This document shows, in pieces, positions 5,255 through 21,826 of a DNA stretch of 64,000 bases; position 1 is the stretch's first letter; the number at the start of each line of letters is the position of its first letter. The translations under genes were made by a program, and so were the position numbers. The notes beneath the pieces are model-generated. The model searched no databases. It had not been told where the DNA came from and saw only the letters and a list, made by a program, of their open reading frames with translations. The DNA comes from Candidatus Poribacteria bacterium. Lineage in GTDB: Bacteria; Poribacteria; WGA-4E; WGA-3G. Where the stretch lies: the NCBI GenBank assembly GCA_965214095.1, contig OZ243938.1, forward strand, positions 3,264,001-3,328,000, in the 5' to 3' direction.

Positions 5255-5336
5255 AATTCATTTTCTGGCCGGTGTCAAACACCGTCAATCTCATCTCTAT
5301 TATCCTTTTCTCCAAATTTCTCTTAATGCAGAATTA

Positions 5337-5365
5337 TGCAACCGTTTTACACCTAATTTGAGGCA
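5337..5365 (+). promoter_or_regulatory. Putative ECF promoter, class B, with mutated -10 (GCAAC-N19-GGCA)
   Basis: Near-identical to the copy-6 promoter except GTCA is GGCA. Confidence 0.55.
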
Positions 5366-5417
5366 TAATAGTTTGATATGTGTTTGCTCAAACTTTTGCA
5401 TAATGGAGACACACCTG

Positions 5418-8264
5418 ATGAAAAACGACGGTGCACTTATTAGACAAATACTCAGCGGTGATCAAATCGCTTTCGTTGGACTCGTGAAAAAGTATCAAAA
5501 ACAAGTTCACGTACTAGCATGGCGGAAGATTGGAGATTTCCACATTGCCGAGGACATTACCCAGGATGTCTTTTTGAAAGTATATCAGAAACTTCACACT
5601 CTGAAAGATCCGAATCAGTTTTCTGGGTTGCTCTACGTCGTGACAACTAACCTATGCAATACATGGCTCAGTAAAAATCGGGATCATTACCAGGTATCAG
5701 AAGATATTGAGACAACTATGATAGAAAGAGACGTATATTCCCGACATATAACAGAAGAGCGAGTTAAGACCACTCTTGAAGCACAACGTGAAGTGGTCAA
5801 GAGATTACTTGCTAAGTTGAAAGAAAGTGAACGCACGGTAATGACTCTCCATTATCTCGGCGAGATGACAGTAGAAGAGATTAGCAAGTTCTAAGGGGTT
5901 TCTGCTGGAACGATAAAGAGCCGACTTCAACGAGCGCGTAACCGTCTACAGAAGGAGGAAACAATGATTAGAGAAGCACTCAACCATTTTCAAATTTCAC
6001 CAAACCTAACTGAGAACATCATGCAAGAAATATCACGTCTCAAACCTACACCTCCCACCAGCAAACCACTTGTGCCGTGGGCAGTTGCTGGTGCAAGTGC
6101 TATCTTAATATTGTTGATGCTTGGTATAGGCAGCCAGAATTTAGTTCGTTTTCAGCAACCTTATACAATAGATGCACAAGCAGAAACAACAGTTGAACTT
6201 GTTGATGCACCTATTGTGCTAAATCTTGATACGAAACCAGATGTCCGAAATCAATTGGGAAACTCAAATGCGTTGGGTATAAGTGAGAGTGAAGGTCAGA
6301 AACCAGATGAAGTCCTGTTGGCTGCTGCACAGGTGGAAGAAAAAGATGTTTCAGATCCGAAACAACAGTGGAATCTGGCTGTTCCCATAAAAGGGAGTTT
6401 TGTAAGTGGTATGACAATCAATTCTAGTGGTGATATTTTCACTTATAATCATGGACTTATCTTTAAATTATCGTCTGATAAGAAGGAGTGGGAGTACATC
6501 CCCACTGCACATAGACTTAATATCACTCATAGTAAGTCTACACATATGAGACTAAAAGAATGGAACAGTACACTTTATCTCCTTCTAATCGAAAAACTCC
6601 TTACTTCAAAGGATGAAGGTATGACATGGGAACTGCTTTACACCTTCCCAATAGATCGGAATCGTGGACCGTTTGACTTCATAGCATCAGAACAGGCGTT
6701 ATTTGCCATCTTTTCAGACAATACTGTATTCCGTTCTGAAGACAATGGAAATACATGGAATATAGTCACCAATGAATTCCCAAAAGCACTAAACACTTTA
6801 GTAGTAGTGCAAGACATCATGTTTGCTGGAACACGTACAGGATTGTATCGTAAGAACATAGATGGATGGGAACACTTGAAATTTCCAACATCCAGGAATA
6901 TAGAAGTAACTTCAATCTTATCAATTAAGGATCAACTCTATGCTACTGGGTTACCAAACCCTTATTCGGAAAAGGATCAAAATCGGTGGATTTTTCGTTC
7001 AATTGACCTCGGTGATTCATGGGATGACATAACACCTACGATCACTTGGTCGAAAAACAGATGGCCACCAGGAATTACTCTCATTGCGACTGATGATACA
7101 CTCTTGGTAATGGAAAAGGGCATGGTTCTTTCAAAGGATAGTGGAGATACATGGTTATCACCACCATTAACAGGAACTACTCCGACAATGCAAAGGTTTA
7201 GTCCATTTGTTGTGACTGATGATTGTGTCATTTATGTTGGTAGTCCGGAGGATGGTCTATTCCGTTCAACGGATAAAGGCAATTCATGGAAAGCAATCAA
7301 TGTTCAACCAGTTGTTCCACGAATACATAACCTAATCGCATATAAGAGAAGTGACAATACACAGAACACACCATCGGACCTCTATGGTCTTCACTTAGGA
7401 GAGATAGCAAATACTACAAACAAAGGCAAATCTTGGCAAGTCGTTCGAATGGGAAAAGAAATGACAGATAATCCTAACATAATAGGAGTACCTCCAACTA
7501 TCAGTAAAATTGTCAAACACGGTGATATTCTCTATGCAAGAGGTACGGATCTCGTCATGGGAGACATGCTTATCTATCGCGTATCCCGTGATGATAGGAC
7601 GCTTGTACCGATACAAGGGATGCCTGTTCTTAACGCGAAGAGTAATCTTAGAAAAGACCGTATTCAAGAGGGATTAGAGGGAGTCTGCGCTGTTGACAAC
7701 GACACATTCTATATTGAATATAACTATAAACTATTCCGTTGGAAGCAAGGTGATACGGATTGGTTCGACACTGGACTGGAAGAAACCTTACATTTACCTA
7801 AGGACATTTTAAGGAGAACTCTTAAACTGGCGGTTTCAGGGAACACTGTCTATGTCGGTAAACGCGATGGACATTTGTTCGTATCGTATGATTCCGGAGA
7901 AAACTGGATAGACCTCACACCAGCTCTGCCATTCACCGTTAAGTCCTTCAAAGGCATTGTGACTGCTGGTTCCACCGTATATGTCGCAACAGACACAGGT
8001 ATCATCACATCTGATAATGGAAGAAATTGGACTACTATCACAGATACGGATGGAATCAATCTCAAAATCGACTACATGGCTATTGATGACACAACACTCT
8101 ATGGAGTTACAAAGGATACTGGTATCTATCGATTGGAAAATGGCACATGGAATCAGATTGTGTCAGAGATACCAGAGAGAATAACATCTCTCGCTGTTGA
8201 TGGAAACACCTTATATGTAGGAACACAGGATCAAGGTATGCTTCACTATAATCTCAGTGAATAA
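5418..8264 (+). pseudogene. ECF sigma-TM-beta-propeller copy 2, in-frame nonsense codon in sigma4; downstream ORF 5964-8264 intact
   Basis: aag ttc TAA ggg gtt at 5892-5894, versus aag ttc TTA ggg gtt in copy 6. Both halves are in the same frame. The conserved sigma2 W is also L (ttg, 5628-5630). Confidence 0.88.
5964..8264 (+). CDS. TM + Asp-box beta-propeller (C-terminal part of copy 2), possibly translated on its own
   Basis: 766-aa open frame; AGGAGG at 5953-5958, 5 nt before the ATG. Confidence 0.6.
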   Translation: MIREALNHFQISPNLTENIMQEISRLKPTPPTSKPLVPWAVAGASAILILLMLGIGSQNLVRFQQPYTIDAQAETTVELVDAPIVLNLDTKPDVRNQLGNSNALGISESEGQKPDEVLLAAAQVEEKDVSDPKQQWNLAVPIKGSFVSGMTINSSGDIFTYNHGLIFKLSSDKKEWEYIPTAHRLNITHSKSTHMRLKEWNSTLYLLLIEKLLTSKDEGMTWELLYTFPIDRNRGPFDFIASEQALFAIFSDNTVFRSEDNGNTWNIVTNEFPKALNTLVVVQDIMFAGTRTGLYRKNIDGWEHLKFPTSRNIEVTSILSIKDQLYATGLPNPYSEKDQNRWIFRSIDLGDSWDDITPTITWSKNRWPPGITLIATDDTLLVMEKGMVLSKDSGDTWLSPPLTGTTPTMQRFSPFVVTDDCVIYVGSPEDGLFRSTDKGNSWKAINVQPVVPRIHNLIAYKRSDNTQNTPSDLYGLHLGEIANTTNKGKSWQVVRMGKEMTDNPNIIGVPPTISKIVKHGDILYARGTDLVMGDMLIYRVSRDDRTLVPIQGMPVLNAKSNLRKDRIQEGLEGVCAVDNDTFYIEYNYKLFRWKQGDTDWFDTGLEETLHLPKDILRRTLKLAVSGNTVYVGKRDGHLFVSYDSGENWIDLTPALPFTVKSFKGIVTAGSTVYVATDTGIITSDNGRNWTTITDTDGINLKIDYMAIDDTTLYGVTKDTGIYRLENGTWNQIVSEIPERITSLAVDGNTLYVGTQDQGMLHYNLSE

Positions 8265-8281
8265 GTAGATTTGCGCAAATG

Positions 8282-8428
8282 CACAATCTTGTCGGCGCGC
8301 TTTTTATGGTGAGGCATACGAATTATATCTACACTTTCTATGAACGGTAGACGAGGTTTCCTAACCTCGCCTTAGCAATGTGTAGAATTATTTCAATAAT
8401 TTACCATAAATGCACCGACAAGATTGTG
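8282..8428. repeat. Nested inverted-repeat (MITE/REPIN-like) element containing a GTAG REP-like hairpin
   Basis: 14-bp perfect IR cacaatcttgtcgg/ccgacaagattgtg; inner arms tttatggt/accataaa and tctacac/gtgtaga; central gtagacgaggtttcctaacctcgcct at 8347-8372. Confidence 0.6.
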
Positions 8429-8476
8429 TTTTTATACTTTTACATTTCCTATAAATAGACTACGACTAACTCATCC

Positions 8477-8504
8477 TTGACAAACCCACCTAATTTGGTA
8501 GAAT
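8477..8504 (+). promoter_or_regulatory. Putative sigma70 promoter
   Basis: TTGACA-N16-TAGAAT with TG extension, upstream of copy 3. Confidence 0.5.
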
Positions 8505-8551
8505 AGTATCTCACTGTTTCCGACCAACTAATCTGTAAACCTGAAAAATTA

Positions 8552-8580
8552 TGCAACCGTTCTCCTCCTAACTTGCGTCA
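8552..8580 (+). promoter_or_regulatory. Putative ECF promoter, class B (GCAAC-N19-GTCA)
   Basis: Motif and spacing shared with copies 2, 4 and 6. Confidence 0.65.
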
Positions 8581-8629
8581 TTTAGTTTGATACGTAATTA
8601 ATCAAACTATTGATTTCTGGAGATACCTT

Positions 8630-11629
8630 ATGAATAACGACGATGTTGCACTTATCAGACAAATTCTTGATGGTGACGAAATCGCTTTCGCTGAACTTGT
8701 GAAAAAGTATCAAAAACAGGTTCACGTGTTAGCATGGCGAAAGATTGGTGACTTTCATATCGCTGAGGACATTACCCAAGACACCTTCCTGAAAGTGTAT
8801 CAGAGACTACATACCTTGAAAGATCCAAACCTATTTTCTGGGTGGCTCTATGTAATTACGACACGTTTATGTGCTACATGGCTACGGAGAAATAGAATTC
8901 AAACGCAACCTTTGGAGGATGTAGAGGAAAGCATGATACAGAGAGATGCATATTCACAACATGTCGCTGATGAACGCGCTAAAACAACCTCTCAGACACA
9001 ACGGGAAGTAGTCAAGAGACTTCTCGCGAAATTGAAAGAGAGTGAACGTACGGTGATGACGCTCTACTACCTCGGTGAAATGACAGTTGAAGAGATTAGC
9101 AAGTTCTTAGGTGTTTCTGCAGGAACGATAAAAAGCCGGCTTCAACGAGCACGTAACCGTTTACAAAAGGAAGAAACAATGATTAGAGAAGCACTCGACC
9201 ATTTCAAACTCTCACCGAACTTAACTGAAAACATCATGCAAGAAGTTTCGCGCCTCAGACCTACACCTTCCACCAGCAAACCTATAGTGCCGTGGGCAGT
9301 AGCTGCTGCAAGTGCAGTCTTAATTGTATTGATGCTTGGCATAGGCAGTCAACAATTACTCCGTTTTCAAAAACCTTTTTCATTAGATGCACAGGCAGAG
9401 ATGACAGTTGAACTTGTTGACACACCAATTGTGCTAAATATAGACACAAACCCAGATGTCCAAAATCGATTGGGCAATACAAATCCGTTGGGTATAAGTG
9501 AGAATGAAGGTCAGAATCCAGATGACATCTTGTGGGCAGTCGCGCAGGGGGAAGGAAAAGATGTTTCTGCTCCTAAACAACAGTGGATCCTGTCCGAACC
9601 TATCTATGGAAGCATAGTACAAGGTTTATGTGCTACCGAAGAAGAACTTTACGCTGTTAATTTTGCACACATATACAAATGGCAAGACGATAGCACGGGA
9701 TGGCAACAAGTTAGTGGTAACATCAGCGAAGTCAATGGTAAACAGATTGAAATCAATAGTGCAAGTAAAGTTCCGATAGCAAAGTTAGACAATACTCTTT
9801 ATATTGTTTTAGAAAATTTATTCTTAGCTTCAGAAGATGATGGGAAGAACTGGAAGATTGTTCATTCATGGACAGATGATTATCGTCTGCCTAACAAATT
9901 AGTGCTTACAGATCAAGAGTTTTGTGTCCAATTTAACAATGCCGTTTTCCGTTCAGAGGATAGAGGCATGACATGGAAGAATGTGAACGTTGATATATTT
10001 CAAGGTTCCAACTTTCTTATAGCAATACAGAACTCAGTATATGCTGGATCAAACACTGGCTTGTATCGCTGGAATACCGACAGATGGCAACGTATAAAAC
10101 TACCCATACCTGAAGCAATATTGGTCACTGATGCAGCAGCTACCAAAGATCGACTGTACGTAATGGCATCATTAGGTACTGACTTTTTTGATGATAAAGC
10201 AGCACGGAAGGGACAACAGCGGACTTGGTGGATATTCAGATCAACAGACCTCGGAAATTCATGGAAAGATATTACACCGACAAATGCCTGGCCCGTAAAG
10301 GGGGTACCACCCGATATCAATATGGTTGCTGCTGGTGAAACTATTCTGTTAATGGGACAAGGTCTGGTGCGTTCTACCGATGCAGGCGATACTTGGATGC
10401 CACTACAAGCCTCTACCACCTTCCCTATGAAAGTTTCCTCTGATAATACTCCTGTAGCAGTAAATGAAGGCACTTTTTTTGCTTCAAGGGGAGGTTTACA
10501 CCGGTCCACTGATGCTGGTCAATCATGGGAAAAAGTAAGAATCGCTCAGGATAAGATGAGATATGTTATAGAAAACCTAATCAAATTCAATAAGAACAGA
10601 AAAAGTCAAAACAGGCTACCTACTCTCTACGGGATAGATGTGGCAAGGCTTGTAAAAACAACTGACCAAGGTAAGTCTTGGAACGTTGTTCAGGTTGAAA
10701 TGCCTATGACGATACCTGTAAGAGAAGACCAACCATGGATTAATCAACTAACTACAACTGGTGATGTAATCTATGCAAGAGGCCACAGTGATTACCCTAT
10801 CGGAGAATTGCAATACTATCGTGTATCCGAAGATGGGAACACATTAGTTCCTATTCAAGGAATTCCTACCTTTGACTCAAGGAGATTAAGAGACCATCTA
10901 CATGAATCAAAAGATCTCTCTATAGAAACGCTGCAGGAAGAGTTTTCTGGAGCAACTCAATTCTTCAATGCGTTGCTTATATCAGATCCTCAACAACAGG
11001 ATATACTCATACAATCAGGACTTAACGGAACTTTTGCTGTCAGTAATGATATCATCTATATGGAGTACAACTTTAAACTCTTTCGGTGGGAACCAGGAGA
11101 TACAGAATGGCACGACATAAGGCAAGAAGAAACCTCAATCATCGCATGGCAAAATCTCCAACTCGCTGTCTCAGGAGATACAGTCTACGTCGGAAAACGT
11201 GATGGTCACCTTGTCGTATCGTTTGATAGGGGAGATCGCTGGATTGATCTTACACCAGCCCTGCCATTTACTGTTACAACTTTCAAAGAGATTGTGGTTG
11301 CTGGATCCACCGTGTATGTTGCAACGGACGCAGGCCTCATTAAATCTGATGATGGCAAAAATTGGCATATCCTTACTGATTCAAAGGGAACAAATCTCAT
11401 CATGGAACAGTTAGCAGTTGATGGCACAACGCTTTACGGTATTACCCAACAAACAGATCTATATATTTTGGAAAGTGATACTGACACTTGGAAACAGATC
11501 ATCACGGATATTCCGGAAGGTGCAATAATGGATGTAACGGCTAACGGAACATCTCTTATTGTTGCTGGCAGCAATTTATACTTGGGTACAGTATTTGAAG
11601 GTATACTGCATTTAACTCTTGAAGAATAA
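8630..11629 (+). CDS. ECF sigma-TM-Asp-box beta-propeller (array copy 3)
   Basis: sigma2/sigma4 motifs (GVSAGTIKSRLQRAR), TM helix, SxDxGxxW repeats; GGAGA RBS. Confidence 0.92.
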   Translation: MNNDDVALIRQILDGDEIAFAELVKKYQKQVHVLAWRKIGDFHIAEDITQDTFLKVYQRLHTLKDPNLFSGWLYVITTRLCATWLRRNRIQTQPLEDVEESMIQRDAYSQHVADERAKTTSQTQREVVKRLLAKLKESERTVMTLYYLGEMTVEEISKFLGVSAGTIKSRLQRARNRLQKEETMIREALDHFKLSPNLTENIMQEVSRLRPTPSTSKPIVPWAVAAASAVLIVLMLGIGSQQLLRFQKPFSLDAQAEMTVELVDTPIVLNIDTNPDVQNRLGNTNPLGISENEGQNPDDILWAVAQGEGKDVSAPKQQWILSEPIYGSIVQGLCATEEELYAVNFAHIYKWQDDSTGWQQVSGNISEVNGKQIEINSASKVPIAKLDNTLYIVLENLFLASEDDGKNWKIVHSWTDDYRLPNKLVLTDQEFCVQFNNAVFRSEDRGMTWKNVNVDIFQGSNFLIAIQNSVYAGSNTGLYRWNTDRWQRIKLPIPEAILVTDAAATKDRLYVMASLGTDFFDDKAARKGQQRTWWIFRSTDLGNSWKDITPTNAWPVKGVPPDINMVAAGETILLMGQGLVRSTDAGDTWMPLQASTTFPMKVSSDNTPVAVNEGTFFASRGGLHRSTDAGQSWEKVRIAQDKMRYVIENLIKFNKNRKSQNRLPTLYGIDVARLVKTTDQGKSWNVVQVEMPMTIPVREDQPWINQLTTTGDVIYARGHSDYPIGELQYYRVSEDGNTLVPIQGIPTFDSRRLRDHLHESKDLSIETLQEEFSGATQFFNALLISDPQQQDILIQSGLNGTFAVSNDIIYMEYNFKLFRWEPGDTEWHDIRQEETSIIAWQNLQLAVSGDTVYVGKRDGHLVVSFDRGDRWIDLTPALPFTVTTFKEIVVAGSTVYVATDAGLIKSDDGKNWHILTDSKGTNLIMEQLAVDGTTLYGITQQTDLYILESDTDTWKQIITDIPEGAIMDVTANGTSLIVAGSNLYLGTVFEGILHLTLEE

Positions 11630-11705
11630 CGAATCTTTCATGACGGCACAGCCTGATGTCCTTTTCCTGTTTTTCCTCAAATATTTCTTTCTTTTGCAGA
11701 ATTTG

Positions 11706-11733
11706 GCAACCATTTTGCATCTATCTTGCGTCA
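11706..11733 (+). promoter_or_regulatory. Putative ECF promoter, class B (GCAAC-N19-GTCA)
   Basis: gcaaccattttgcatctatcttgcgtca. Confidence 0.65.
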
Positions 11734-11783
11734 CTATAGGTTGATATATCAAAAACCCTCATATATTAGACAGGATGTATCTG

Positions 11784-14700
11784 ATGAACAACGATGATGT
11801 AACCCTTATTCAACGCATTCTCGCTGATGATGAAGCTGCTTTTGCAGAGCTTGTGAAGAAATATCAGAAAGCGGTGCATACTCTTGCTTGGCGAAAGATT
11901 GACGATTTTCACATTGCAGAGGACATCACACAAGATGCCTTCCTGAAAGTGTATCAGAGACTCCATACACTAAAAGATCCGAAGCAGTTCTCTGGATGGC
12001 TCTATGTGATTACTTCAAACTTATGTGCCACATGGCTTCGCAAAAAACGGTTACGGACACAACCTATAGAGGACGAAGAGGCAGTTATGACTCCAAGAGA
12101 TGTATATTCTCAGCATGTCGTAGAAGAACGGAACCAGGCGGCTGCTGAAACACAACGTGAAGTGGTCAAGAAACTGCTGGCGAGGTTAAAAGAGAGTGAA
12201 CGGACAGTGATGTCACTTTATTATCTTGGAGAGATGAGGGTTGAAGAGATAAGCAGATTTCTGGGGGTATCCACAAGCACAATCAAAAGCCGTCTTAGAC
12301 GTGCACGGAACCGTTTACAGAAGGAGGAAACGATGATTAGAGAAGCCCTTGAACATTTCAAACTTTCACCGAACTTCACCGAAAATATCATGCAAGAAAT
12401 ATCACATCTCAAACCTACACCTTCCACCAGCAAACCCCTCGTACCGTGGACAGTTGCTGCTTCAAGTGCAATCCTAATAGTGTTGATGCTTGGCATAGGC
12501 AGTCAGAATTTAGTTCGTTTTCAGAAACCTTATTCATTAGATGCACAAGCAGAGATGACGGTTGAACTTGTTGACACACCAATTGTGCTAAATATAGACG
12601 CGAAGCCAGATGTTAGAAATCAATTGGGCAGTATAAATCCTGCTGGTGATAGTGAAAATGAAGGTCAGAAACCAGATGAAGTCCTGTTAGCTGCCGCAGA
12701 AACCGAGGATGAGAACAAGGTATCCGTTCCCAAACAGCGGTGGATTCAGTCTGAACCTGTCAAAGGAAGTGATGTAGATGCTTTATCTGTAACATCTAAT
12801 GGTGAACTATACTCAGTTGCTAACAGGCATATTTACAAAATTGAATCCGATGGGGAAGCGTGGCAACAGATCGCAAATATTGATACACTGGATGTTAAGT
12901 ATGGGAGTTCTGCTTTTATCAAAGAGTGGGACAATATGCTCTATCTGTTATTAGATTCTACAATACTTACTTCAAAAGATGACGGTAAGACATGGGAGTT
13001 AGTTAACACACTGCTAACAGATTCTACATTTGCTCTTGATTTCATACTAACTAACCAAGCTTTTTATATCATTTTTTCTAATTACACTGCTTTTCGGTCT
13101 GAAGATAAGGGTGTAACATGGGAGGCAATGAACGTCGATTTTCCGCAGAACCCCAACTCTATAGTAGTGATTCAAGACACAATGTTTACTGGTACATTTA
13201 ATGGACTCTACCGATTAAAGGAAGACAACTGGGTACCAATGAAACTCCCTGGATCTGTTAGTGCAATTCTCTCAGTTGCTGGATCTGATGGGAAGATTTA
13301 TGTTGCGGCAGAGTTTAGCAAGGACGTGACTAGTTCTCAAAAAGTTCGTCAGGGGTTGGCACGGGGCTGGTGGATATTTCGCTCAACAGATCTCGGTGAT
13401 TCATGGGACGATATAACGCCGAAAAACGCATGGCCTGTAATGGGGTTGCCACCTAAAATCAAACTCGTTGCTGTCGGTGAAACACTCTTAGCAATGGAAC
13501 AGGGAATGGTTCGATCGACCGATGCAGGAAACACATGGCAGCCAAGACAACTACCTGGCACCTCACCTTCAATGGATAATAGACTCAGTTATGTTGCTAC
13601 GGTGAACGACAGATCCATTTATGTTGGCAGCAAAAAGGACGGCCTTTACCGCTCCACTGATGGCGGTATATCCTGGGACCCAGTAAATATTAATGGACGA
13701 AACTGGAAAATAATAACAAATTTAATTACGGTTGAAGGAAACAATAAAACACCAAATATGCCGTCCATGTTGTATGCAGAATTCGCAGGAGATATTGTAA
13801 AAACTACTGACAAGGGCAAATCTTGGAGAAGAATCCGGATGGGAATACCTATGACAGCTCCTGTTAGAGAAGTTCCGCCGTATTTTAGTCGGCTAGGTGA
13901 ATTCGGTGGTACCCTCTATGCCAAAACAGATGGTTGGCGCAGCTTTAGAAGCGAATATAAAACAGGTTTATATCGCATCTCTGAAGATGGAAACTCAGTC
14001 ATGTCTATACAAGGCATGCCTACCTTTAACTCAAGCATGTTGAAACATCTATGGAAGAACGGAAGAAGGGGATCTTTAGATGTGTCAGATAAGTCATTCA
14101 TTGAACAGTTGAATGAGAATTTCGTTGGGGCAGACCAGTTCTTTAAAACGTTGGCACAGGAGAAAACCCTAACGCAAAACGAACTTGATCAGGAACAACT
14201 ATATGAGGATCAGGAACGACTCATACTGGAAGGTTTATTAGACGGTGCTTTTGCTGTCAGCGGCGACACGTTTTACTTTGAATACAACTTTAAACTCTTC
14301 CGATGGAAGTCAGGTGAAACAACGTGGTACGACACGGGTGTACAGGAGACGGGTGAACTCCGTTATTTTGAAGCTGCAAAGGCATTTGAAAGAGAGGGAC
14401 TCTCAAATGAAAAGATTGGCGAAATTATTAGGGCTTGGCAATTCGGGTTCAAACTTGCCGTTTCAGGTAACACTGTCTATGTCGGCAAACGGGATGGCAC
14501 CCTCTTACAATCATTTGATGCAGGAACTAATTGGGTTGATCTCACGCCTGTACTACCATTCCCAGTAAAAGCATTCAAAGATATCGTGATTGTTAATGAT
14601 ACAGTGTATGTAGCAACAGATGCAGGTGTCACCACATCAGATCGTGGAAATAATTGGGGTGTTATTACCGATTCAGAAGGCACAAATCTCAATATGGACA

Positions 14701-14891
14701 TACTGACTGCTGATGGCACAAAACTCTATGGCGTTACCAAAGATACTGGCATTTATCGTTTGGAAAATGATGCATGGTATCAGATTGTTTCAGAGATTCC
14801 AGATAACATAAATTCTCTCGCTGTTGATGGGAATACCTTATTCGTGGGAACACAAGACCGCGGTATGCTTCATTTCACTCTTGAAGAATAA
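11784..14891 (+). CDS. ECF sigma-TM-Asp-box beta-propeller (array copy 4)
   Basis: Same architecture. Start set at MNNDD (11784) by alignment with copy 3; the ORF track opens at 11775. Confidence 0.92.
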   Translation: MNNDDVTLIQRILADDEAAFAELVKKYQKAVHTLAWRKIDDFHIAEDITQDAFLKVYQRLHTLKDPKQFSGWLYVITSNLCATWLRKKRLRTQPIEDEEAVMTPRDVYSQHVVEERNQAAAETQREVVKKLLARLKESERTVMSLYYLGEMRVEEISRFLGVSTSTIKSRLRRARNRLQKEETMIREALEHFKLSPNFTENIMQEISHLKPTPSTSKPLVPWTVAASSAILIVLMLGIGSQNLVRFQKPYSLDAQAEMTVELVDTPIVLNIDAKPDVRNQLGSINPAGDSENEGQKPDEVLLAAAETEDENKVSVPKQRWIQSEPVKGSDVDALSVTSNGELYSVANRHIYKIESDGEAWQQIANIDTLDVKYGSSAFIKEWDNMLYLLLDSTILTSKDDGKTWELVNTLLTDSTFALDFILTNQAFYIIFSNYTAFRSEDKGVTWEAMNVDFPQNPNSIVVIQDTMFTGTFNGLYRLKEDNWVPMKLPGSVSAILSVAGSDGKIYVAAEFSKDVTSSQKVRQGLARGWWIFRSTDLGDSWDDITPKNAWPVMGLPPKIKLVAVGETLLAMEQGMVRSTDAGNTWQPRQLPGTSPSMDNRLSYVATVNDRSIYVGSKKDGLYRSTDGGISWDPVNINGRNWKIITNLITVEGNNKTPNMPSMLYAEFAGDIVKTTDKGKSWRRIRMGIPMTAPVREVPPYFSRLGEFGGTLYAKTDGWRSFRSEYKTGLYRISEDGNSVMSIQGMPTFNSSMLKHLWKNGRRGSLDVSDKSFIEQLNENFVGADQFFKTLAQEKTLTQNELDQEQLYEDQERLILEGLLDGAFAVSGDTFYFEYNFKLFRWKSGETTWYDTGVQETGELRYFEAAKAFEREGLSNEKIGEIIRAWQFGFKLAVSGNTVYVGKRDGTLLQSFDAGTNWVDLTPVLPFPVKAFKDIVIVNDTVYVATDAGVTTSDRGNNWGVITDSEGTNLNMDILTADGTKLYGVTKDTGIYRLENDAWYQIVSEIPDNINSLAVDGNTLFVGTQDRGMLHFTLEE

Positions 14892-14990
14892 TATACCATA
14901 AGTGAGCGGTACCGAATGCCTCTACTCCATCCAATTATTTTAAATATCCTCACTAAACGTCGTATCCTCTGACAACATAGAACTTATATG

Positions 14991-15048
14991 AATATGAAAA
15001 GAGAGGATAATGGTATAATATCTGAACATTATACTCTCTTTTCATATT
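14991..15048 (+). promoter_or_regulatory. Long inverted repeat enclosing an extended -10 (TGGTATAAT)
   Basis: aatatgaaaagagaggataatg...cattatactctcttttcatatt; homologous to 2096-2137. Confidence 0.5.
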
Positions 15049-15059
15049 CTTTAAAAACT

Positions 15060-15087
15060 TGAGACTTTTTCTCCGCAAGTCGCGTCA
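15060..15087 (+). promoter_or_regulatory. Putative ECF promoter, class A (TGAGAC-N18-GTCA)
   Basis: Matches the copy-1 promoter. Confidence 0.65.
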
Positions 15088-15133
15088 CTATACGTCAATG
15101 TGAACGATTAAGTCCCTTTGTTAGAGGTATCTA

Positions 15134-15440
15134 GTCATAGTACCCAAACCTAAAGGGTTGGGCTTGTGCTTCATAGACGTTGCGTTTCACCAAAAGGATC
15201 ATCCGTCTTATTTCGTCTCCACAGTGGGTTCTAAGCAACCTCACTTGCTCTAAAAGAGCAACTTATTATTTGAGAGTGTGTTTTTCGGACTGGGTTTTTT
15301 ACCTCCCATGTCCCTACCACTCAATTGTTATGTGTCTATGGTAGTGAGAGCGTATATGTTTTTCAGTTTTATGCTCCGCAACATATAGCACCAAAGACTG
15401 CGGACAACCTCACACACGACTGCGTGTGATTGAACTTTCC
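15134..15440 (-). ncRNA. Putative stand-alone structured RNA ending in a TnpB omegaRNA/reRNA-like scaffold
   Basis: Minus-strand 3' part CTGTGGAGAC..TAAGAC..GTCTATGAAGCACAAGCCCAACCCTTTAGGTTTGGGTACTATGAC resembles IS605/tnpB right ends. Several hairpins lie upstream, and there is a dedicated promoter. Confidence 0.55.
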
Positions 15441-15446
15441 GAATAT

Positions 15447-15475
15447 ATTTTAGCAAGTTTGACATTTATTGTCAA
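15447..15475 (-). promoter_or_regulatory. sigma70 promoter inside the element, firing leftwards
   Basis: TTGACA-N17-TAAAAT on the minus strand. Confidence 0.7.
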
Positions 15476-15539
15476 GAAAAACATAGGAGCGGGCAGGAGA
15501 CCCAAACCTAAAGGATTGGGTCTCCTGCCCGAAGATTAG

Positions 15540-18530
15540 ATGAAAAATGCTGATGTTGAACTCATCCAACGTGTCCTTGATGGCGATGATACTGCGTTCT
15601 CAGAGCTTGTGAGAAATTATAAGAAGTCAGTCCATGCGCTTGCATGGCGAAAAGTTCAAGACTTCCACATCGCAGAGGACATCACACAGGAAACATTTCT
15701 GAAGGCATATCAGAAGTTGTCAACTTTGAATGAATCACAGTCATTTGCAAGTTGGCTCTATGTGATAGCGGCGAATGAATGTAAGGCATGGCTTCGTCGG
15801 AAACGTATACGGACACAGTCTTTGGAAGATATCAATGATGCAGAGTTGGAACAAGCGACCTATTCCAACTATGTCATTAATGAAAAAGAACGGACATCAG
15901 TAGAAGCGCAGCGCGAAGTTGTCAAGAAGTTGCTTGCGAAGCTGCAGGAGAGTGACCGTACGGTCATAACGCTCTATTACCTCGGGGGAATGACGTATGA
16001 AGAAATCAGCAGATTCTTAGGTGTATCGGTCAGTGCGATCAAGAACCGCCTCTACCGAGCGCGCCAGTTTCTAAAAAAGGAGGAACCCATGATAAGAGAA
16101 GTTTTAGAGAATTACCAAATCACACCCAATTTCACTGAGAACATCATGCAAGAAATATCACGTCTCAAACCTACACCTTCCACCAGCAAACCGCTTGTGC
16201 CGTGGGCAATTGCTGCTACAAGTACAATCTTAATTATGTTGATGCTTGGCATAGGCAGCCAACAATTAGTGCGTTTTCAGCAACCTTTTACATTAGATGC
16301 GCAAGCAGATATGACGGTTGAACTTGTTGACACACCAATTGTGCTGAATCTGGATTCTGTGCCAGATGTTAGAAATAGACTGGGCAGTATAAATCCTGCT
16401 GGTGATAGTGAAAATGAAGGTCAGAAACCAGATGAAGTCCTGTTAGCTGCCGCAGAAACCGAGGATGAGGACAAGGTATCCACACCTAAACAGCAGTGGA
16501 TTCAGTCTGAACCTATTAAAGGTAGTCAAGTATATAGTCTAAAAGGCACCACGCAAGGTGATCTGTATGTTCTTGTGAGTAATAGAGGAACTCCAAACAT
16601 CCTCAAGTTAACATCGGATGGAAATACTTGGCAATCTATAGATGGTTACCCGTCAGGTACAGTTTGGGGATTTAACGCAGCTATGGTAGAGTGGAATAAT
16701 ACTTTTTACATTATACCATCTAACGAGCTCTTTGCATCAGAAGATGAAGGAAAGACTTGGAATTCACTTTACACGTGGTCTAAAGACCACAATGTGATTG
16801 ATCTTCTACCCATGGATAATGCATTCTACGCTGCATTTCAAGAAGGTATTTATAAGTCTGATGATTTAGGAAAGACGTGGAAAGCAATACAAGATGAGCA
16901 AATCAAGTATATCGAATCTCTAGTAAGAATCCAAAACACATTGTTTGTTGAAACATCCACCAAACTTTACCGATTGGATGACGATGGTTTGAACTCATTG
17001 GAATTTCCAGTACCTGTTAGGAGCATTATTTCAGTTGCAGGAACTGATGGAAAGCTTTATGTTGAAGTAACGTCTAATTCAGATCGTAGTTGGTGGATAT
17101 TCCGTTCAACTGATCTTGGGGATTCGTGGATAGATATAACACCGACAAACGCTTGGTCTATAGAAGGACAACCACCTTATTGCAAATTGATTGCATCTGA
17201 AGAAACCCTGTTGGTAATGGAACAGGGAATGGTTCGCTCAACTGATGGAGGGAATACATGGCTGCCTCCACAGTTACCAGGAACCACTCCTTCAATGAGT
17301 AGTTCATATAATGCAGTTGCTGTAAATCAAGACACCTTTTATGTTGGAAGTAGTGATGGCTTACATCATTCAACTAATAAGGGAAAATCGTGGGATTTAG
17401 TGAGAGTCGCTCCAGATATGAGAAGACGTGTAATGTTTAATCTAATCGCAACCAAAAATAGTGTCGATAGTCTAAACTTGATGCCGACACTCTATGGGAT
17501 AGTTGAAGTCGGAGAGATAACAAAAACTAATGATGATGGCAAGTCATGGGAGACTGTTCGTGTTGATACACCTATGTCAACATCAAACAGAGGAAACGTA
17601 CCAACAATAACCCAGATTGTTAAATCAGGCGATGATGTCTACGTTAAAGGAGGATCTCTTGGTGAGGGAAAGGTAGGTCATTACATAGTATCTGACAACG
17701 GGAACACTTTAGTCCCAATTCAGGACATGCCAACTTTCAGTTCAACTGAATTAAGGATGCGTCTATTTACTTCTAAAGATCTTACGATAGGAGAGTTGCA
17801 AGAAGATTTCTCTGGTGCAAAAAATTTCTTCCAACAGATGCTTAATTCAGCACCTCAACAACTAATTAAGCTTGAAGAACTTGGACTTCGTGGCCCTTTT
17901 ACTGTCAGTGGTGACACATTCTATACGGAATACAACCTTAAACTCTTTAGATGGAATCCTGGAGATACAGAATGGTATGACACTGGTCAAGAAGACATTG
18001 GTGACTTTCCCTTGGATGAATTGTTCATAAGCACATTTAAGTCACACTTCATTGTTCCCAAACTTGCAGCTTATGACAACACAGTTTACTACGGAAAGCG
18101 GAATGGACAATTGGTAGTATCGTTTGATAAAGGTAATAATTGGGTTGATCTCACTCCAGGTCTACCCTATAAGGTAAAAACATATAATAGTATCGTGTTT
18201 GTGGGTTCCACAGTATATGTGGCAACAAATGCAGGTATCATTACATCAGATGATGGGAGAACGTGGAAAACTGTCACTGATTCTGGTAGATCTAATATCA
18301 TCATGGCGCATTTAGCTGTGGACGGTACAACACTCTATGGCATTACTAACACAACGAGTATCTACCGTTTAAATAGTGAAAGTGGTGCTTGGGAACAGGT
18401 TGTCACTAAGATACCAGAAATTAAAAATCTCAAAATAAGGGATTTCGTTACATCTTTCGCGGTTGCTGGAAGGACGTTGTATGTAAGTACTGAAGTAAAC
18501 GGAATGTTCCATTTTAACCTTGATGAATAA
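15540..18530 (+). CDS. ECF sigma-TM-Asp-box beta-propeller (array copy 5), separated from its RBS by the insertion
   Basis: Sigma domain very similar to copy 1; frame intact. Confidence 0.92.
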   Translation: MKNADVELIQRVLDGDDTAFSELVRNYKKSVHALAWRKVQDFHIAEDITQETFLKAYQKLSTLNESQSFASWLYVIAANECKAWLRRKRIRTQSLEDINDAELEQATYSNYVINEKERTSVEAQREVVKKLLAKLQESDRTVITLYYLGGMTYEEISRFLGVSVSAIKNRLYRARQFLKKEEPMIREVLENYQITPNFTENIMQEISRLKPTPSTSKPLVPWAIAATSTILIMLMLGIGSQQLVRFQQPFTLDAQADMTVELVDTPIVLNLDSVPDVRNRLGSINPAGDSENEGQKPDEVLLAAAETEDEDKVSTPKQQWIQSEPIKGSQVYSLKGTTQGDLYVLVSNRGTPNILKLTSDGNTWQSIDGYPSGTVWGFNAAMVEWNNTFYIIPSNELFASEDEGKTWNSLYTWSKDHNVIDLLPMDNAFYAAFQEGIYKSDDLGKTWKAIQDEQIKYIESLVRIQNTLFVETSTKLYRLDDDGLNSLEFPVPVRSIISVAGTDGKLYVEVTSNSDRSWWIFRSTDLGDSWIDITPTNAWSIEGQPPYCKLIASEETLLVMEQGMVRSTDGGNTWLPPQLPGTTPSMSSSYNAVAVNQDTFYVGSSDGLHHSTNKGKSWDLVRVAPDMRRRVMFNLIATKNSVDSLNLMPTLYGIVEVGEITKTNDDGKSWETVRVDTPMSTSNRGNVPTITQIVKSGDDVYVKGGSLGEGKVGHYIVSDNGNTLVPIQDMPTFSSTELRMRLFTSKDLTIGELQEDFSGAKNFFQQMLNSAPQQLIKLEELGLRGPFTVSGDTFYTEYNLKLFRWNPGDTEWYDTGQEDIGDFPLDELFISTFKSHFIVPKLAAYDNTVYYGKRNGQLVVSFDKGNNWVDLTPGLPYKVKTYNSIVFVGSTVYVATNAGIITSDDGRTWKTVTDSGRSNIIMAHLAVDGTTLYGITNTTSIYRLNSESGAWEQVVTKIPEIKNLKIRDFVTSFAVAGRTLYVSTEVNGMFHFNLDE

Positions 18531-18612
18531 AACCATTTTCTGGACGGTGTCAAACACCGTCCTTCTCATCTCCATCATCCCTTACCTCCAAATTTCTCTT
18601 TATGCAGAATTA

Positions 18613-18641
18613 TGCAACCGTTTTACTCCTAATTTGAGTCA
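18613..18641 (+). promoter_or_regulatory. Putative ECF promoter, class B (GCAAC-N19-GTCA)
   Basis: tgcaaccgttttactcctaatttgagtca. Confidence 0.65.
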
Positions 18642-18691
18642 TAATAGTTTGATATGTGTTTGATCAAACCTTCGTATAATGGAGACACCTG

Positions 18692-21600
18692 ATGAAAAAC
18701 GACGGTGCACTTATTAGACAAATACTCAGCGGTGATCAAATCGCTTTCGCTGAACTCGTGAAAAAGTATCAAAAACAAGTTCACGTACTAGCGTGGCGAA
18801 AAATTGGAGATTTCCACATTGCCGAGGACATTACCCAGGATGTCTTTCTGAAAGTATATCAGAAACTTCACACTCTGAAAGATGTGAATCAGTTTTCTGG
18901 GTGGCTCTACGTCGTTACAACAAACCTATGCAATACATGGCTCAGTAAAAATCGGATGCACAACCAACCGTTGGAAAACATTGAGACAACCATGATAGAA
19001 AGAGACGTATATTCCCATCATATCACAGAAGAGCGAGTTAAGACCACTCTTGAATCACAACGTGAAGTGGTCAAGAAACTCCTCGCTAAGTTGAAAGAAA
19101 GTGAACGCACGGTAATGACTCTCCACTATCTCGGCGAGATGACAGTGGAAGAGATTAGCAAGTTCTTAGGGGTTTCTGCTGGAACGATAAAGAGCCGACT
19201 TCAACGTGCGCGGAACCGTCTACAGAAGGAGGAAACAATGATTAGAGAAGCACTCGACCATTTTCAAATTTCACCAAACCTAACTGAAAACATCATGCAG
19301 GAAGTATCACATCTCAAACCGACACCTCCCACCAGCAAACCCTTCGTGCCGTGGGCGGTTGCATCTTCAAGTATAGTATTGATTATGATGATGCTCGGAA
19401 TTGGGAGTCAGTACTTAGCCTATTTTCAGAAGCCGTATAGTTTTGATGCTCAGTCAGAGATGACGGTTGAACTAATTGATACACCAATAGTTCTGAATCT
19501 TGATACGCAACCGAGAGAACAATATCAGTTTGGAATTGCAAATGCAATTAGTGAAAATGATAACAGCGGACAGAATCCCGATGAAGTCTTATTAGCTGAT
19601 GGGAAAACTGAAGGTGAAGACATTTCAATACCTAAGCAAGAGTGGGTTGAATATGAACATCAGCCATTCGCTTTTCCAAGCAAATTACTTGCGACACCTG
19701 AAGGTGAACTCTACACTTTGACCGCTGGTGGACACCTCCACAAATTGAAGAGAGATGGTGAAAGTTGGGAACATCTCAATGATATAAGTTCTTTAATTGA
19801 TGATTTTATTGCTCCTGATTCACTAATGGCGGAATGGAACGGTATTCTATACCTGGTGTGGTATAATGAATTCTATGCGTCTAAAGATGATGGAAAAACG
19901 TGGGACTTGGTATATAAATGGGAAATACCTGCTGCGGGAGGGGATTTTGAAGTTCAGGAACTGGTGTTAACGGAAGAATCTTTTTATCTTGTTTACCCAG
20001 ATGCTGTTTTCCGTTCTGAGGATCAAGGAAAAACATGGAAGAATATGCGTGATGAATTTCCAAATGTTCCAGACTCTATAACTGTTTTTCAAGATACAGT
20101 ATTTGTCACATCAGGTACAGGTTTCTATCGAGGCAATGCCGGCAGTTGGCATAAGTTAGCGTTACCAATTCCTGAAACTGTCTATATTACTTCAGTCGCT
20201 GCTTCTAAAAACCGATTATATGTTATGGCAAATTTAGGATCTGACTTTGATCCCCAAGCAGCATCAGAGGGGCGGCAACGAACATGGTGGATATTTCGCT
20301 CAACTGATTTGGGGAATACGTGGAAAGATATAACACCCACAAACGCTTGGCCCATTAAAGGCTGGTACCCAGATCTGAAACTTATTGCTGCTGGAGAGAA
20401 CATCCTGCTAATGGAAAAGGGTATGGTAATGTCAACTGACGGAGGAGAATCTTGGCTGCCACCATTGAAACCCAATGCTTCACCTTCAATGGATTCCTAC
20501 TCACCTGCTGTGGTACTAAACGACCATAGCATTTATGTTGGTAGCGGCGATGGATTTCAAAGTTCCAAAGATGGTGGAAAAACTTGGGAAAGTATTAAAA
20601 TACCAGCACGGAAAAAGTTTTCAAGGAATATCATAGCTAATTTAATCGTATATGATGGAATTGAGAATTCACAAGAAACACCTTCAGCGGTCTATGTTAA
20701 GTCTTGGCGATCACTTGTCAAAACTACAGATAGAGGTAAATCTTGGAATCCTGTTGAAAAGGAAGTACGAATGACAGAACCCTTCAGGGAGGAACAACCG
20801 GAGATTCTTAGCATAGTAGAAGCTGATGATGGACTTTATGCTAAAGGGGGTAGTGGCTATGACACTGTAAAGAAAGTTAATATGTATAGAGTATCTGAAG
20901 ATGGAAACTCGCTGATTGGTATTCAAGGTTTTCCATACTTACACTCTCATTCAATAACTAACAAATTGGATAGGCATCACAGGAACCCCTTAGGGCTGTC
21001 TGATACAGCATTGGTTGAGGAACTTCAAAAGAATTACAAAGGTGCAACGCAGTTTTTCAAGGAATTAGTAGATTTGGCACAGGGAGAATTAGTAGATTTG
21101 GGACAAGGCGGTATTCAAGGCCAAATTATTCTGGTTCAACGTGATCTTATAAATAGAGGTTTAAACGGTACATTTGCGGTAAGTGGAGATACGTTCTACT
21201 TAGAATACAACTTCAAACTCTTCCGATGGACACAAGGTGAAAGAGAATTGTATGATACAGGTGTGGAAGAGACGATTGGTCTTACTATCAGGTTGTCTGA
21301 TGGCAAGTATTTACCCGCTACACTTATACCTCCCGCTGACATGCCAAAAGGACGTGCACTGGAAAAGTTTCGTGCTTTGCATAATCTCAAACTTGCTGTT
21401 TCAGGTAATACTGTCTACGTTGGGAAACGAGATGGCCACCTTCTTGTATCTTATGATAGAGGAGATAATTGGACAGATATCACACAAAGTTTGCCGCATC
21501 CGGTTATTGCGTTCAAGGATATAAAGTTCGTTGGGTCCAAAATATATGTAGCAACGGATGCTGGTGTAACTATGTCACATAATGGAATACAGTGGCATGC

Positions 21601-21826
21601 AATCACTGATGCAGATGGAACAGATCTCGTCATGGAATACTTGGCTGTTGATGGTAGAAGACTGTTTGGAATGACTGATAAAACTGGTGTTTATCTCTTG
21701 GTGAATGGCACTTGGGAACAGATTGTATCAGATACGCCTGAGAGATTTACTTCTCTTGCTATAGATGGGAATACTGTGTATGTTAGCACTATGCAACGTG
21801 GTATGCTCCACTATGTTCTTGAGTAG
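18692..21826 (+). CDS. ECF sigma-TM-Asp-box beta-propeller (array copy 6)
   Basis: Sigma domain very similar to copy 2 but intact; same architecture. Confidence 0.92.
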   Translation: MKNDGALIRQILSGDQIAFAELVKKYQKQVHVLAWRKIGDFHIAEDITQDVFLKVYQKLHTLKDVNQFSGWLYVVTTNLCNTWLSKNRMHNQPLENIETTMIERDVYSHHITEERVKTTLESQREVVKKLLAKLKESERTVMTLHYLGEMTVEEISKFLGVSAGTIKSRLQRARNRLQKEETMIREALDHFQISPNLTENIMQEVSHLKPTPPTSKPFVPWAVASSSIVLIMMMLGIGSQYLAYFQKPYSFDAQSEMTVELIDTPIVLNLDTQPREQYQFGIANAISENDNSGQNPDEVLLADGKTEGEDISIPKQEWVEYEHQPFAFPSKLLATPEGELYTLTAGGHLHKLKRDGESWEHLNDISSLIDDFIAPDSLMAEWNGILYLVWYNEFYASKDDGKTWDLVYKWEIPAAGGDFEVQELVLTEESFYLVYPDAVFRSEDQGKTWKNMRDEFPNVPDSITVFQDTVFVTSGTGFYRGNAGSWHKLALPIPETVYITSVAASKNRLYVMANLGSDFDPQAASEGRQRTWWIFRSTDLGNTWKDITPTNAWPIKGWYPDLKLIAAGENILLMEKGMVMSTDGGESWLPPLKPNASPSMDSYSPAVVLNDHSIYVGSGDGFQSSKDGGKTWESIKIPARKKFSRNIIANLIVYDGIENSQETPSAVYVKSWRSLVKTTDRGKSWNPVEKEVRMTEPFREEQPEILSIVEADDGLYAKGGSGYDTVKKVNMYRVSEDGNSLIGIQGFPYLHSHSITNKLDRHHRNPLGLSDTALVEELQKNYKGATQFFKELVDLAQGELVDLGQGGIQGQIILVQRDLINRGLNGTFAVSGDTFYLEYNFKLFRWTQGERELYDTGVEETIGLTIRLSDGKYLPATLIPPADMPKGRALEKFRALHNLKLAVSGNTVYVGKRDGHLLVSYDRGDNWTDITQSLPHPVIAFKDIKFVGSKIYVATDAGVTMSHNGIQWHAITDADGTDLVMEYLAVDGRRLFGMTDKTGVYLLVNGTWEQIVSDTPERFTSLAIDGNTVYVSTMQRGMLHYVLE

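Follow-up and report, generated by a model that had tools for sequence, protein, structure and literature searches.

In the 64,000-nucleotide (nt) stretch of contig OZ243938.1 from Candidatus Poribacteria bacterium analyzed here (the window), a 406-nt insert at positions 15134–15539 separates the ribosome-binding site from the ATG of a gene that we call copy 5. The insert is very probably a gene-less, non-autonomous element of the IS200/IS605 family, of the palindrome-associated transposable element (PATE) kind, and comes from a lineage that has siting at start codons as a trait. An initial annotation, made from the window sequence alone, had described an IS200/IS605-type mini-element inserted precisely and without duplication next to TTCAT. 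Empty sites in related genomes and ends shared with other elements bear out that description, and the siting turned out to be a property of all the mini-elements of this lineage that were found.

The insert is bordered by host flank on both sides. On the plus strand, position 15133 closes the left flank (...gttagaggtatcta), GTCATAGTACCC...CCCGAAGATTAG is the insert itself, and the host sequence resumes at 15540 with ATGAAAAATGC. The upstream region of copy 1, a paralogue of copy 5, aligns with the copy 5 left flank as far as the copy 1 ATG. A search with 234 nt of left flank against 40 genomes of the genus gave eight orthologous or paralogous loci for comparison. Seven of these, in other species of the genus, had an uninterrupted joint between the flank and ATGAAAAATG, and in the eighth, from genome G051, the window junction was occupied by another, distinct member of the family. 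The empty junction in G044 reads ...ccctttgttagaggtatcta/ATGAAAAATGCTGATG (the slash marks the joint), with the last 25 nt of the flank identical to the window. A shift of either boundary by a single base fails to give the G044 empty site; hence, the ends are unambiguous and no base is duplicated. The copy 1 alignment and the G044 site also agree with the earlier observation that removing 15134–15539 leaves a junction like that of copy 1.

The source genome (G000; 5.2 Mb in four contigs) contains four full copies of the element at unrelated loci, with 98–100% identity: the window copy and three others, c2, c3 and c4. Exact empty sites were found in other species for all four, and a mini-element in G015 likewise has an exact empty site in its sister species G041. 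The insertion in the window is thus more than chance. The initial annotation had named a TAG target duplication as a finding that would speak against this type of element. The flanks of c2 and c3 end ACG and CCA, and no base is duplicated at the empty sites; TAG at both ends of the window copy is a coincidence of its flank. That the insert is no transposon at all, being instead a native leader (riboswitch or attenuator), an inverted-repeat miniature element that duplicates TA or TAG, or an IStron, is extremely improbable. Its 5′ leader position would suit such an origin, as would the TAG by which the window copy and c4 are flanked at either end, but the same 406 nt stand before four unrelated genes, and the ends are common to elements that carry tnpB. 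The inverted-repeat element was ruled out since there are neither terminal inverted repeats nor a duplicated base at the empty sites, and the IStron since no group I intron in Rfam matched either strand of 14000–17000 at E ≤ 1. The same scan returned only chance microRNA models and neither an intron nor a known guide-RNA family.

Oriented by its relatives, the top strand of the element is the minus strand of the window and reads TTCAT/CTAATCTTCGGGCAGG...left-end hairpin...right-end hairpinGGGTACTATGAC/, where slashes mark the boundaries. The element has subterminal hairpins near both ends. The end hairpin ACCCAAACCTAAAGGGTTGGG at 15142–15162 has a 95% copy at 15500–15520, with the shared form ACCCAAACCTAAAGG(G/A)TTGGG, as expected from the related hairpins that had been noticed at both ends. 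The left-end copy sits within the perfect 20-bp stem, in which 15490–15509 pair with 15512–15531, and in the sense of the host gene the foot of this hairpin is followed by AAGATTAG (15532–15539) and then the ATG. The terminus on the minus strand, earlier given as TGAC after an element start next to TTCAT, is CTATGAC, and CTATGAC was present in all 18 right ends listed. Among 45 left-end matches from the genus, TCAT stood directly before the left end in 29, and five more had a left end longer by 2 nt; at the ten mini-element sites described below, (T)TCAT always precedes the left end, which answers the earlier question of whether other copies share the TTCAT preference.

Some relatives of the element carry tnpB. 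Its right end is ~80% identical to the sequence 3′ of tnpB genes of 341–382 codons, and its left end is 82–87% identical to those of 1386-nt TnpB elements. The example at C1:325905–327290 has a like left end, a TTCAT target and a 373-aa TnpB with OrfB_IS605 and Cas12f1-like TNB domains, for which the closest solved relative is ISDra2 TnpB (8EXA/8BF8/8H1J; E 4e-38). In an alignment of 15 right ends (six from mini-elements, nine from longer elements), the last ~115 nt were homologous. The consensus fold had 16 predicted pairs, six of them with compensatory changes; four compensated pairs fall in the right-end hairpin, and a longer-range stem is also compensated (GAGCAG/CTGCTA versus GAGACG/CGTCTA). 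Upstream of these ~115 nt, the sequence is common to the mini-elements and has no detectable similarity to tnpB. In the window element, the left end with hairpin and promoter is separated by ~170 nt of lineage-specific sequence from the right end, which has a guide-RNA-type scaffold. No open reading frame (ORF) was conserved among seven mini-element sequences, the longest being 26–70 aa with neither position nor strand kept. The promoter block of the left end is conserved in the TnpB-bearing relatives, where it occupies the position of their tnpB promoter; with its minus-strand TTGACA-17-TAAAAT it is also the convergent promoter proposed at the outset. A promoter scan found no sense-direction promoter inside the element.

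Four intact Y1 transposase genes of 141 codons and one fragment are present in the source genome. The 138–141-aa Y1 transposase is closest to the solved IS608 TnpA (2A6M/2VHG; E 3e-34). The tnpA-tnpB elements of the source genome have an inner hairpin CCCAAnnCTTTAGnnTTGGG (CCCAAGTC-TTTA-GACTTGGG) similar to that of the mini-element. Autonomous elements with tnpA-tnpB and the mini-type right end (...GGGTACTATGAC) occur in three other species (G009, G022 and G002), where the left ends differ. It is plausible that a TnpA able to move the mini-element is available, and the near-identity of the copies points to recent movement. One of the four tnpA-tnpB elements of the source genome (L023, G000:C1:4228581–4231934) has an interrupted left-end hairpin, the 5′ half of which lies ~200 nt farther upstream. 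The features of the element and its surroundings are collected in Table 1.

Table 1. Features of the mini-element and of the host gene region, in window coordinates.
Feature	Position	Strand	Evidence or remark
Whole mini-element, very probably non-autonomous IS200/IS605 (PATE-like)	15134..15539	minus; left end 15539 to right end 15134	empty sites; 4 copies at 98–100% identity
Target / transposon-adjacent motif TTCAT (plus-strand ATGAA: start codon + 2 bases)	15540..15544	minus	outside the element
Left-end subterminal hairpin, perfect 20-bp stem in the window copy	15490..15531	minus	DNA fold
Sigma-70-type promoter TTGACA-17-TAAAAT with TG, antisense to host gene	15447..15475	minus	11/12 matches
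Right end: subterminal hairpin 15142–15162 + omega-RNA-type scaffold, terminus CTATGAC	15134..15250	minus	homology to 3′ end of tnpB elements
Terminator-like hairpin + T-rich run, host-sense	15245..15271	plus	stem kept with compensatory changes in other mini-elements
AGGAG directly 5′ of left-end hairpin, candidate split ribosome-binding site	15485..15489	plus	predicted function
Original Shine-Dalgarno AGAGGT of host gene, now 406 nt farther from the ATG	15123..15128	plus	6 nt from junction; normal spacing in empty sites
Host gene copy 5, 996-aa fusion	15540..18530	plus	reading frame intact
Conserved block TGAGAC ... GCGTCA, ECF-type-promoter-like	15060..15089	plus	alignment of paralogue and orthologue upstream regions

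In the source genome, each of the four copies has a GGAG-type motif on one side and a start ATG on the other, and the genes so entered are unrelated, encoding an extracytoplasmic function (ECF) sigma factor/beta-propeller fusion (copy 5), a Laminin_G_3 protein, a VIT-VWA protein and a WD40 protein. The 40 genomes were searched for further mini-elements with a conserved interior word (18 matches in nine genomes) and with BLAST. Six more were found, one each in G006, G022 and G015 and three in G042, and the c4 copy proved common to G000 and G051. A separate search by the spacing between left and right ends recovered only the six known copies outside G000 and no new ones; this search missed the G000 copies. 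All ten independent sites, in six species, were directly before the ATG of an ORF of 109–996 aa, two of which run to the end of the locus. At each of the ten, there was an upstream in-frame stop within 27 codons and a motif like a ribosome-binding site 6–12 nt from the junction, the weakest being GAAGG. Relatives that share the left end and are longer, or whose length is unknown, were less uniform: 17 of 38 unique sites were at start codons, two were ambiguous (ORFs of 55 and 74 aa), and 19 were not at start codons. Left out of the 45 left-end matches were four that follow TCAC and seven that follow no such motif, three of the seven not being element-like.

The initial annotation had suggested that an ATGAA target biases insertion toward start codons. 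An association of the ATGAA target with start codons was borne out and is much stronger than guessed, as the counts for mini-elements and longer relatives show. We compared these counts with the sites offered by the genome. ATGA occurs at 55,273 genome sites, of which 2.2% are start-like, rising to 15% if only start-like and non-coding sites are tolerated; the corresponding figures are 3.6% and 21% for the 20,336 ATGAA sites, and 8.5% and 39% for the 2,314 ATGAAAA sites. Even under the most generous null (39%), ten of ten mini-element sites has a binomial p of 8e-5. The longer relatives (17/38) exceed the 21% null (p 9e-4) and do not exceed the 39% null (p 0.29), and mini-elements and longer relatives differ from each other in their siting at start codons (Fisher p 0.0026). 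The TTCAT motif makes start codons possible sites, but it does not account for the mini-elements being nowhere else. Start-codon siting is very probably a trait of the TTCAT-targeting lineage and not an accident of the window copy.

One explanation for the siting is that motif and purifying selection suffice: any accessible TTCAT would be used, insertions in genes would be purged, those at start sites tolerated, neither targeting nor function would be involved, and ten of ten would be an extreme draw with a T-rich target, TTTTCAT being ATGAAAA on the other strand. This is a serious candidate, if short of probable. TTTTCAT is found at five and TTTCAT at eight of the ten mini-element sites, ATGAAAA is enriched at starts, making up the 39% of tolerated sites above, and the longer relatives fit that null. 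On the other hand, the mini-elements remain improbable even at 39% and are unlike their longer relatives; ordinary intergenic sites should be at least as harmless as a place between ribosome-binding site and ATG, yet no mini-element is found there; and sister species have two sites in common, where the occupant is either not the same element or far more recent than the surrounding sequence. In G003 and G020 (L111–L139), a 1.4-kb TnpB element that targets TTCAT and shares the start of the left end is present in 13–18 copies. Three of the G020 copies may interrupt ORFs, which suggests a recent burst that selection has yet to filter, and in that respect they favor purifying selection.

Two kinds of targeting rule were considered. 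Pairing of the left-end loop GGAGA with CTCC of the host ribosome-binding site, as an extended target, was rejected, since relatives that have the same left end but are not at starts have no CTCC in the flank. No rule could be derived for guide-to-target pairing in the style of IS608, since a left end that begins CAACGTTT is combined with TCAT in one element but with TCAC in others. A strong AGGAG beside the left end was associated with siting at start codons (16/19 versus 8/22, Fisher p 0.004); this is a hint, as the copies are non-independent and no association was seen within one lineage.

On the explanation that we favor, the element entered by single-strand 'peel-and-paste' transposition 3′ of TTCAT on the minus strand. 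Since TTCAT is the reverse of ATGAA, this puts it in antisense exactly between ribosome-binding site and ATG, without a duplication. The further steps that we propose are individually less certain than the identity of the element and its start-codon trait. A Y1 TnpA acting in trans would have moved the mini-element recently. The left-end promoter would make an omega-type RNA, with the flank that holds the displaced ribosome-binding site as its guide, and TnpB in trans together with this RNA would cut the empty allele, so that the element is kept. The host transcript would read through the element, the left end of which would offer AGGAG and a hairpin 8 nt before the ATG. Excision, if it occurs, would be scarless, which is plausible; its use as a switch is hypothetical. 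A further possibility, which we regard as speculative and rather unlikely, is that this PATE lineage is specialized for translation starts, being either directed to them or retained nowhere else, and brings its own ribosome-binding signal, so that the host gene stays functional. A guide RNA from the antisense promoter would match the flank with the displaced ribosome-binding site and, with TnpB in trans, cut empty alleles, so that the filled allele, or renewed colonization of the site, would spread through strains and sister species. The element would then be a selfish homing 5′-leader cassette and not a random insertion.

A number of observations weigh against the main explanation. The gene models behind the siting counts were crude (an ORF had to reach 90 aa and have a ribosome-binding-site motif between −16 and −5, and long ORFs were chosen greedily). 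The tnpA-tnpB elements of the source genome follow TTCAC and end GTTGAA, and so differ from the mini-element in target and terminus; a strictly cognate TnpA in this genome is therefore at most putative. The mini-elements retain only ~115 nt of the scaffold shared with tnpB elements and have no Rfam match, the guide RNA being a prediction. Minima of cumulative GC skew and gene-strand bias both lie near 3.21 Mb but are weak, with no clear terminus; an origin at about 3.21 Mb would put the top strand of the window copy on the leading-strand template, opposite to the published rule for IS608 and ISDra2. In the host-sense RNA, a stem within a fold of −42 kcal/mol ends 8 nt before the AUG, and a strong convergent promoter is joined by a weak terminator-like hairpin in the sense direction; all three could silence the gene. 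Finally, the exact empty joint of 15133 to 15540 was absent from the contigs of four sequencing runs.

A reversible OFF switch, as proposed in the initial annotation, is a rival explanation. The element would silence copy 5 and excision by TnpA would restore it; such a device could give phase variation of surface or signalling genes. The ribosome-binding site is displaced by 406 nt, the 20-bp stem stands 8 nt before the AUG, the antisense promoter and terminator-like hairpin could act against the gene, and excision would be exact. In addition, five of ten mini-element targets have N-termini like signal peptides or membrane segments, and, apart from copy 5, the genes targeted in G000 encode lectin-like, VIT-VWA and WD40 proteins. 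We nevertheless consider a switch unlikely. Selection for silencing predicts mostly intragenic insertions, and whereas ~17,500 of the 20,336 ATGAA sites are intragenic, none of the ten mini-elements is; since most TTCAT sites are intragenic and no mini-element is there, silencing selection does not explain the siting. In addition, a TTTTCAT target selects MK(K/R/N) starts in any case. The terminator-like hairpin itself is weak, with a 7-bp stem, three G-C pairs and a broken T run, and its fold is no better than that of shuffled sequences.

That copy 5 is off is a prediction, and indirect evidence speaks against silencing in general. The mini-element in G015 lies between AGGAG and the ATG of a 109-aa gene like IscA/HesB, which has one match per genome in 38 of the 40 genomes (E ≤ 1e-20); the leader of this gene keeps the spacing AGGAGAT-N5-6-ATG in nine further species, with AGAGGTG in G042. 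Such a target also speaks against the switch. Moreover, in gene sense, the left end offers AGGAG or GGAGG, a hairpin, 7–8 nt and the ATG in six of seven mini-elements, the overall identity of which is only 57–87%. Together, the G015 case and the left-end AGGAG speak against general silencing, and more likely, to judge from sequence, the host gene is modulated rather than off. The c4 gene has a dN/dS of 0.36 over 495 codons between G000 and G051, with the ORF intact in both; the c4 locus is a mosaic, however, with the gene 85%, the flank 95.5% and the mini-element ~99% identical, so that the dN/dS is no proof of gene function while the site is occupied. Contigs from RNA libraries of two studies (X15 and X16) cover the element and stop 26 nt past its right end in the c4 flank, with the strand undefined. 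As a weak hint, they fit either a guide RNA or a host 5′ end. The RNA-run contigs did not cover the flanks of the window copy and are no evidence of silence.

In the copy 5 protein, regions 2 and 4 of an ECF sigma factor are fused to a BNR/Sortilin-like beta-propeller. It belongs to a tandem array at 2231–21826 of about six paralogues of this ECF-sigma/beta-propeller type, each of ~1000 aa and each after a conserved TGxxAC...GCGTCA block; before copy 5, the block TGAGAC ... GCGTCA is a putative ECF-type promoter of the host gene. The counterpart of copy 5 in G051 is 86% identical over the first 973 nt only and then diverges. A near-perfect 60-nt palindrome, ATGAAAAGAGAGGATAATGGTATAATAT...TCTCTTTTCAT, stands upstream of both copy 5 (14988–15051) and copy 1 and ends TTTTCAT; either strand of it gave a chance match to a microRNA model.

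Reversibility was looked for in the assembled Logan contigs of four runs, from which rare variants drop out. Run labels (sponge metagenome) point to a sponge symbiont of the Poribacteria type. Contigs of X1 and X6 had the filled left junction, and no empty allele was seen beside a filled one; the proposed search for the empty junction thus returned filled junctions only. A single X1 joint of 15092 to 15540 does not match the empty site and most likely comes from a paralogue. The further claim that copy 5 could be restored scarlessly by TnpA in trans is plausible in mechanism, but several findings weigh on it: the genome's own tnpA elements differ from the mini-element, no empty joint was found, and the left end of the window copy is a derived perfect palindrome, which also tells against a working switch.

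Among the five near-identical copies (the four in G000 and c4 of G051), the only differences are three point changes and, within the left-end hairpin, two blocks of 5 nt. The canonical left end, in c2, c3 and most relatives, has a 5 × 5 purine internal loop, GGAGA/AGGAA. The window copy and the c4 copy of G051 have GGAGA/TCTCC instead, and the c4 copy of G000 has TTCCT/AGGAA; both are perfect palindromes. As DNA, the left end folds with −22 kcal/mol in the window copy versus −10.7 kcal/mol in the canonical c2. The palindrome was thus perfected at least three times among these five copies, in both directions, and copy b of G042 is a fourth case. The change looks like repeated template-switch perfecting of a quasi-palindrome, and it may have reduced the mobility of the window copy. 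Two fragments were also seen in the source genome. A 48-nt remnant at G000:C1:1717515–1717562 (L018:1504–1551) consists of the 5′ half of the left end and the 3′ half of the right end around a single hairpin, and looks as if the whole element had been deleted by recombination between the left- and right-end hairpins. An isolated 76-nt left-end fragment of a mini-element, with 93% identity, lies at G000:C1:1260400–1260475 (L005:1501–1576), after GTTCAT and not at a long ORF.

At two loci, the same site is filled in two species. At the window junction in G051, the nearest species (L141:1–1510, G051:C4), the flank is 97% identical to the window, and the site contains a TnpB element of 1386 nt. 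This element has 92% identity to the one at C1:325905–327290 and matches the mini-element at its ends only (80–87%). At c4, the mini-elements of G000 and G051 (L004 and L093) have one point difference and the two hairpin blocks in 406 nt, being ~99.7% identical aside from the blocks. The 1000 nt upstream contain 37 differences (3.7%), of which that at −36 is closest to the element; in the gene, differences begin at +68. At that rate, ~15 differences would be expected in the 406 nt, and the Poisson probability of three or fewer is 2e-4, which makes the element far younger than the DNA on either side. Two readings fit: short recombination tracts may carry filled alleles from lineage to lineage, in a homing-like manner, or the same sites may be hit repeatedly. 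According to the published model, TnpB with its guide RNA cuts the empty donor site and so favors retention of the element and opposes its loss.

Such behavior could reflect active site choice or RNA-guided homing, in which colonized sites are refilled or filled alleles spread. TnpB with the guide RNA of the element would cut or open the matching empty allele (TTCAT and flank), and an element would be restored there by repair or by integration through TnpA. A structural preference, for example for unstructured single-stranded DNA at translation starts, would in addition favor start codons. Both loci speak for this, the c4 differences beginning at −36 and +68 like the edges of a short conversion tract, and stimulation of recombination by TnpB has been published (Meers et al., PMC10055086). 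We hold the explanation to be doubtful all the same: its support is indirect throughout, and concerted evolution or ordinary recombination between co-resident species could produce such a pattern as well. Start regions are conserved in any case, recurrence at one site would be explained while the choice of new start codons would not, and guide-RNA expression and TnpB activity are only predicted.

The mini-element resembles several known systems. ISDra2 of Deinococcus radiodurans encodes TnpA and TnpB, has TTGAT as its target and transposon-adjacent motif, and is excised precisely. Like the family of the mini-element, it has the target 5′ of the left end and the guide RNA at the right end; the mini-element differs in its target TTCAT and terminus CTATGAC and in lacking both genes. 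IS608 of Helicobacter pylori (TnpA, target TTAC) shares the imperfect subterminal hairpins, the insertion 3′ of a short motif and the absence of a duplication, but no pairing rule between guide and target is readable in the mini-element, and the two stems of its left end are separated by a 5 × 5 internal loop. In homing by group I introns, inteins and homing-endonuclease genes, as at the c4 site, sister species have the same site occupied by an element that is much more alike than its flanks, and cleavage of the empty allele by a nuclease is predicted; for the mini-element, this would be TnpB, guided by RNA and supplied in trans. In split ribosome-binding sites of the phage T4 gene 38 type, a hairpin bridges the two parts. 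The host-sense transcript of the mini-element has the same order of AGGAG, stem-loop, 7–8 nt and AUG, with a stem of 20 bp (or two stems and an internal loop) that is much longer than in the T4-type examples, and such a function is a prediction.

Closest are the PATEs, a term that is reportedly also used for Haloquadratum. Meers et al. (2023, PMC10055086) noted minimal IS200/IS605 elements like PATEs next to the ISGst elements of Geobacillus stearothermophilus. PATEs agree with the mini-element in having no protein gene and the ends of tnpB/tnpA elements of the same genome, and also in the retained guide-RNA region and the dependence on TnpA and TnpB in trans that are predicted for the mini-element. 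The mini-element is unlike them in that ten of ten independent copies are at the junction of ribosome-binding site and ATG and in that its interior has no detectable tnpB origin. ISGst5, an IscB element of G. stearothermophilus, also has TTCAT beside its left end, as its transposon-adjacent motif (PMC10055086); its nuclease, IscB, and its host differ. The phrase 'start codon' does not occur in the PMC copy that was searched, and no description of a lineage confined to junctions of ribosome-binding site and ATG was found in the literature searched. Gene-less IS200/IS605 derivatives and guide RNAs are already known; the new part is the start-codon siting, which is unexplained.

Should the bias come from targeting, it would point to a so far unrecognized level at which single-strand transposition chooses its targets, or to homing from genome to genome under RNA guidance. 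Should it come from tolerance, the left end must act as a portable translation-initiation signal. In either case, the lineage is a natural system for the coexistence of TnpA, TnpB and guide-RNA elements with host gene expression. It also carries a warning for annotation: a real ribosome-binding site can lie 400 nt upstream of its gene, and 'intergenic repeats' may be in leaders.

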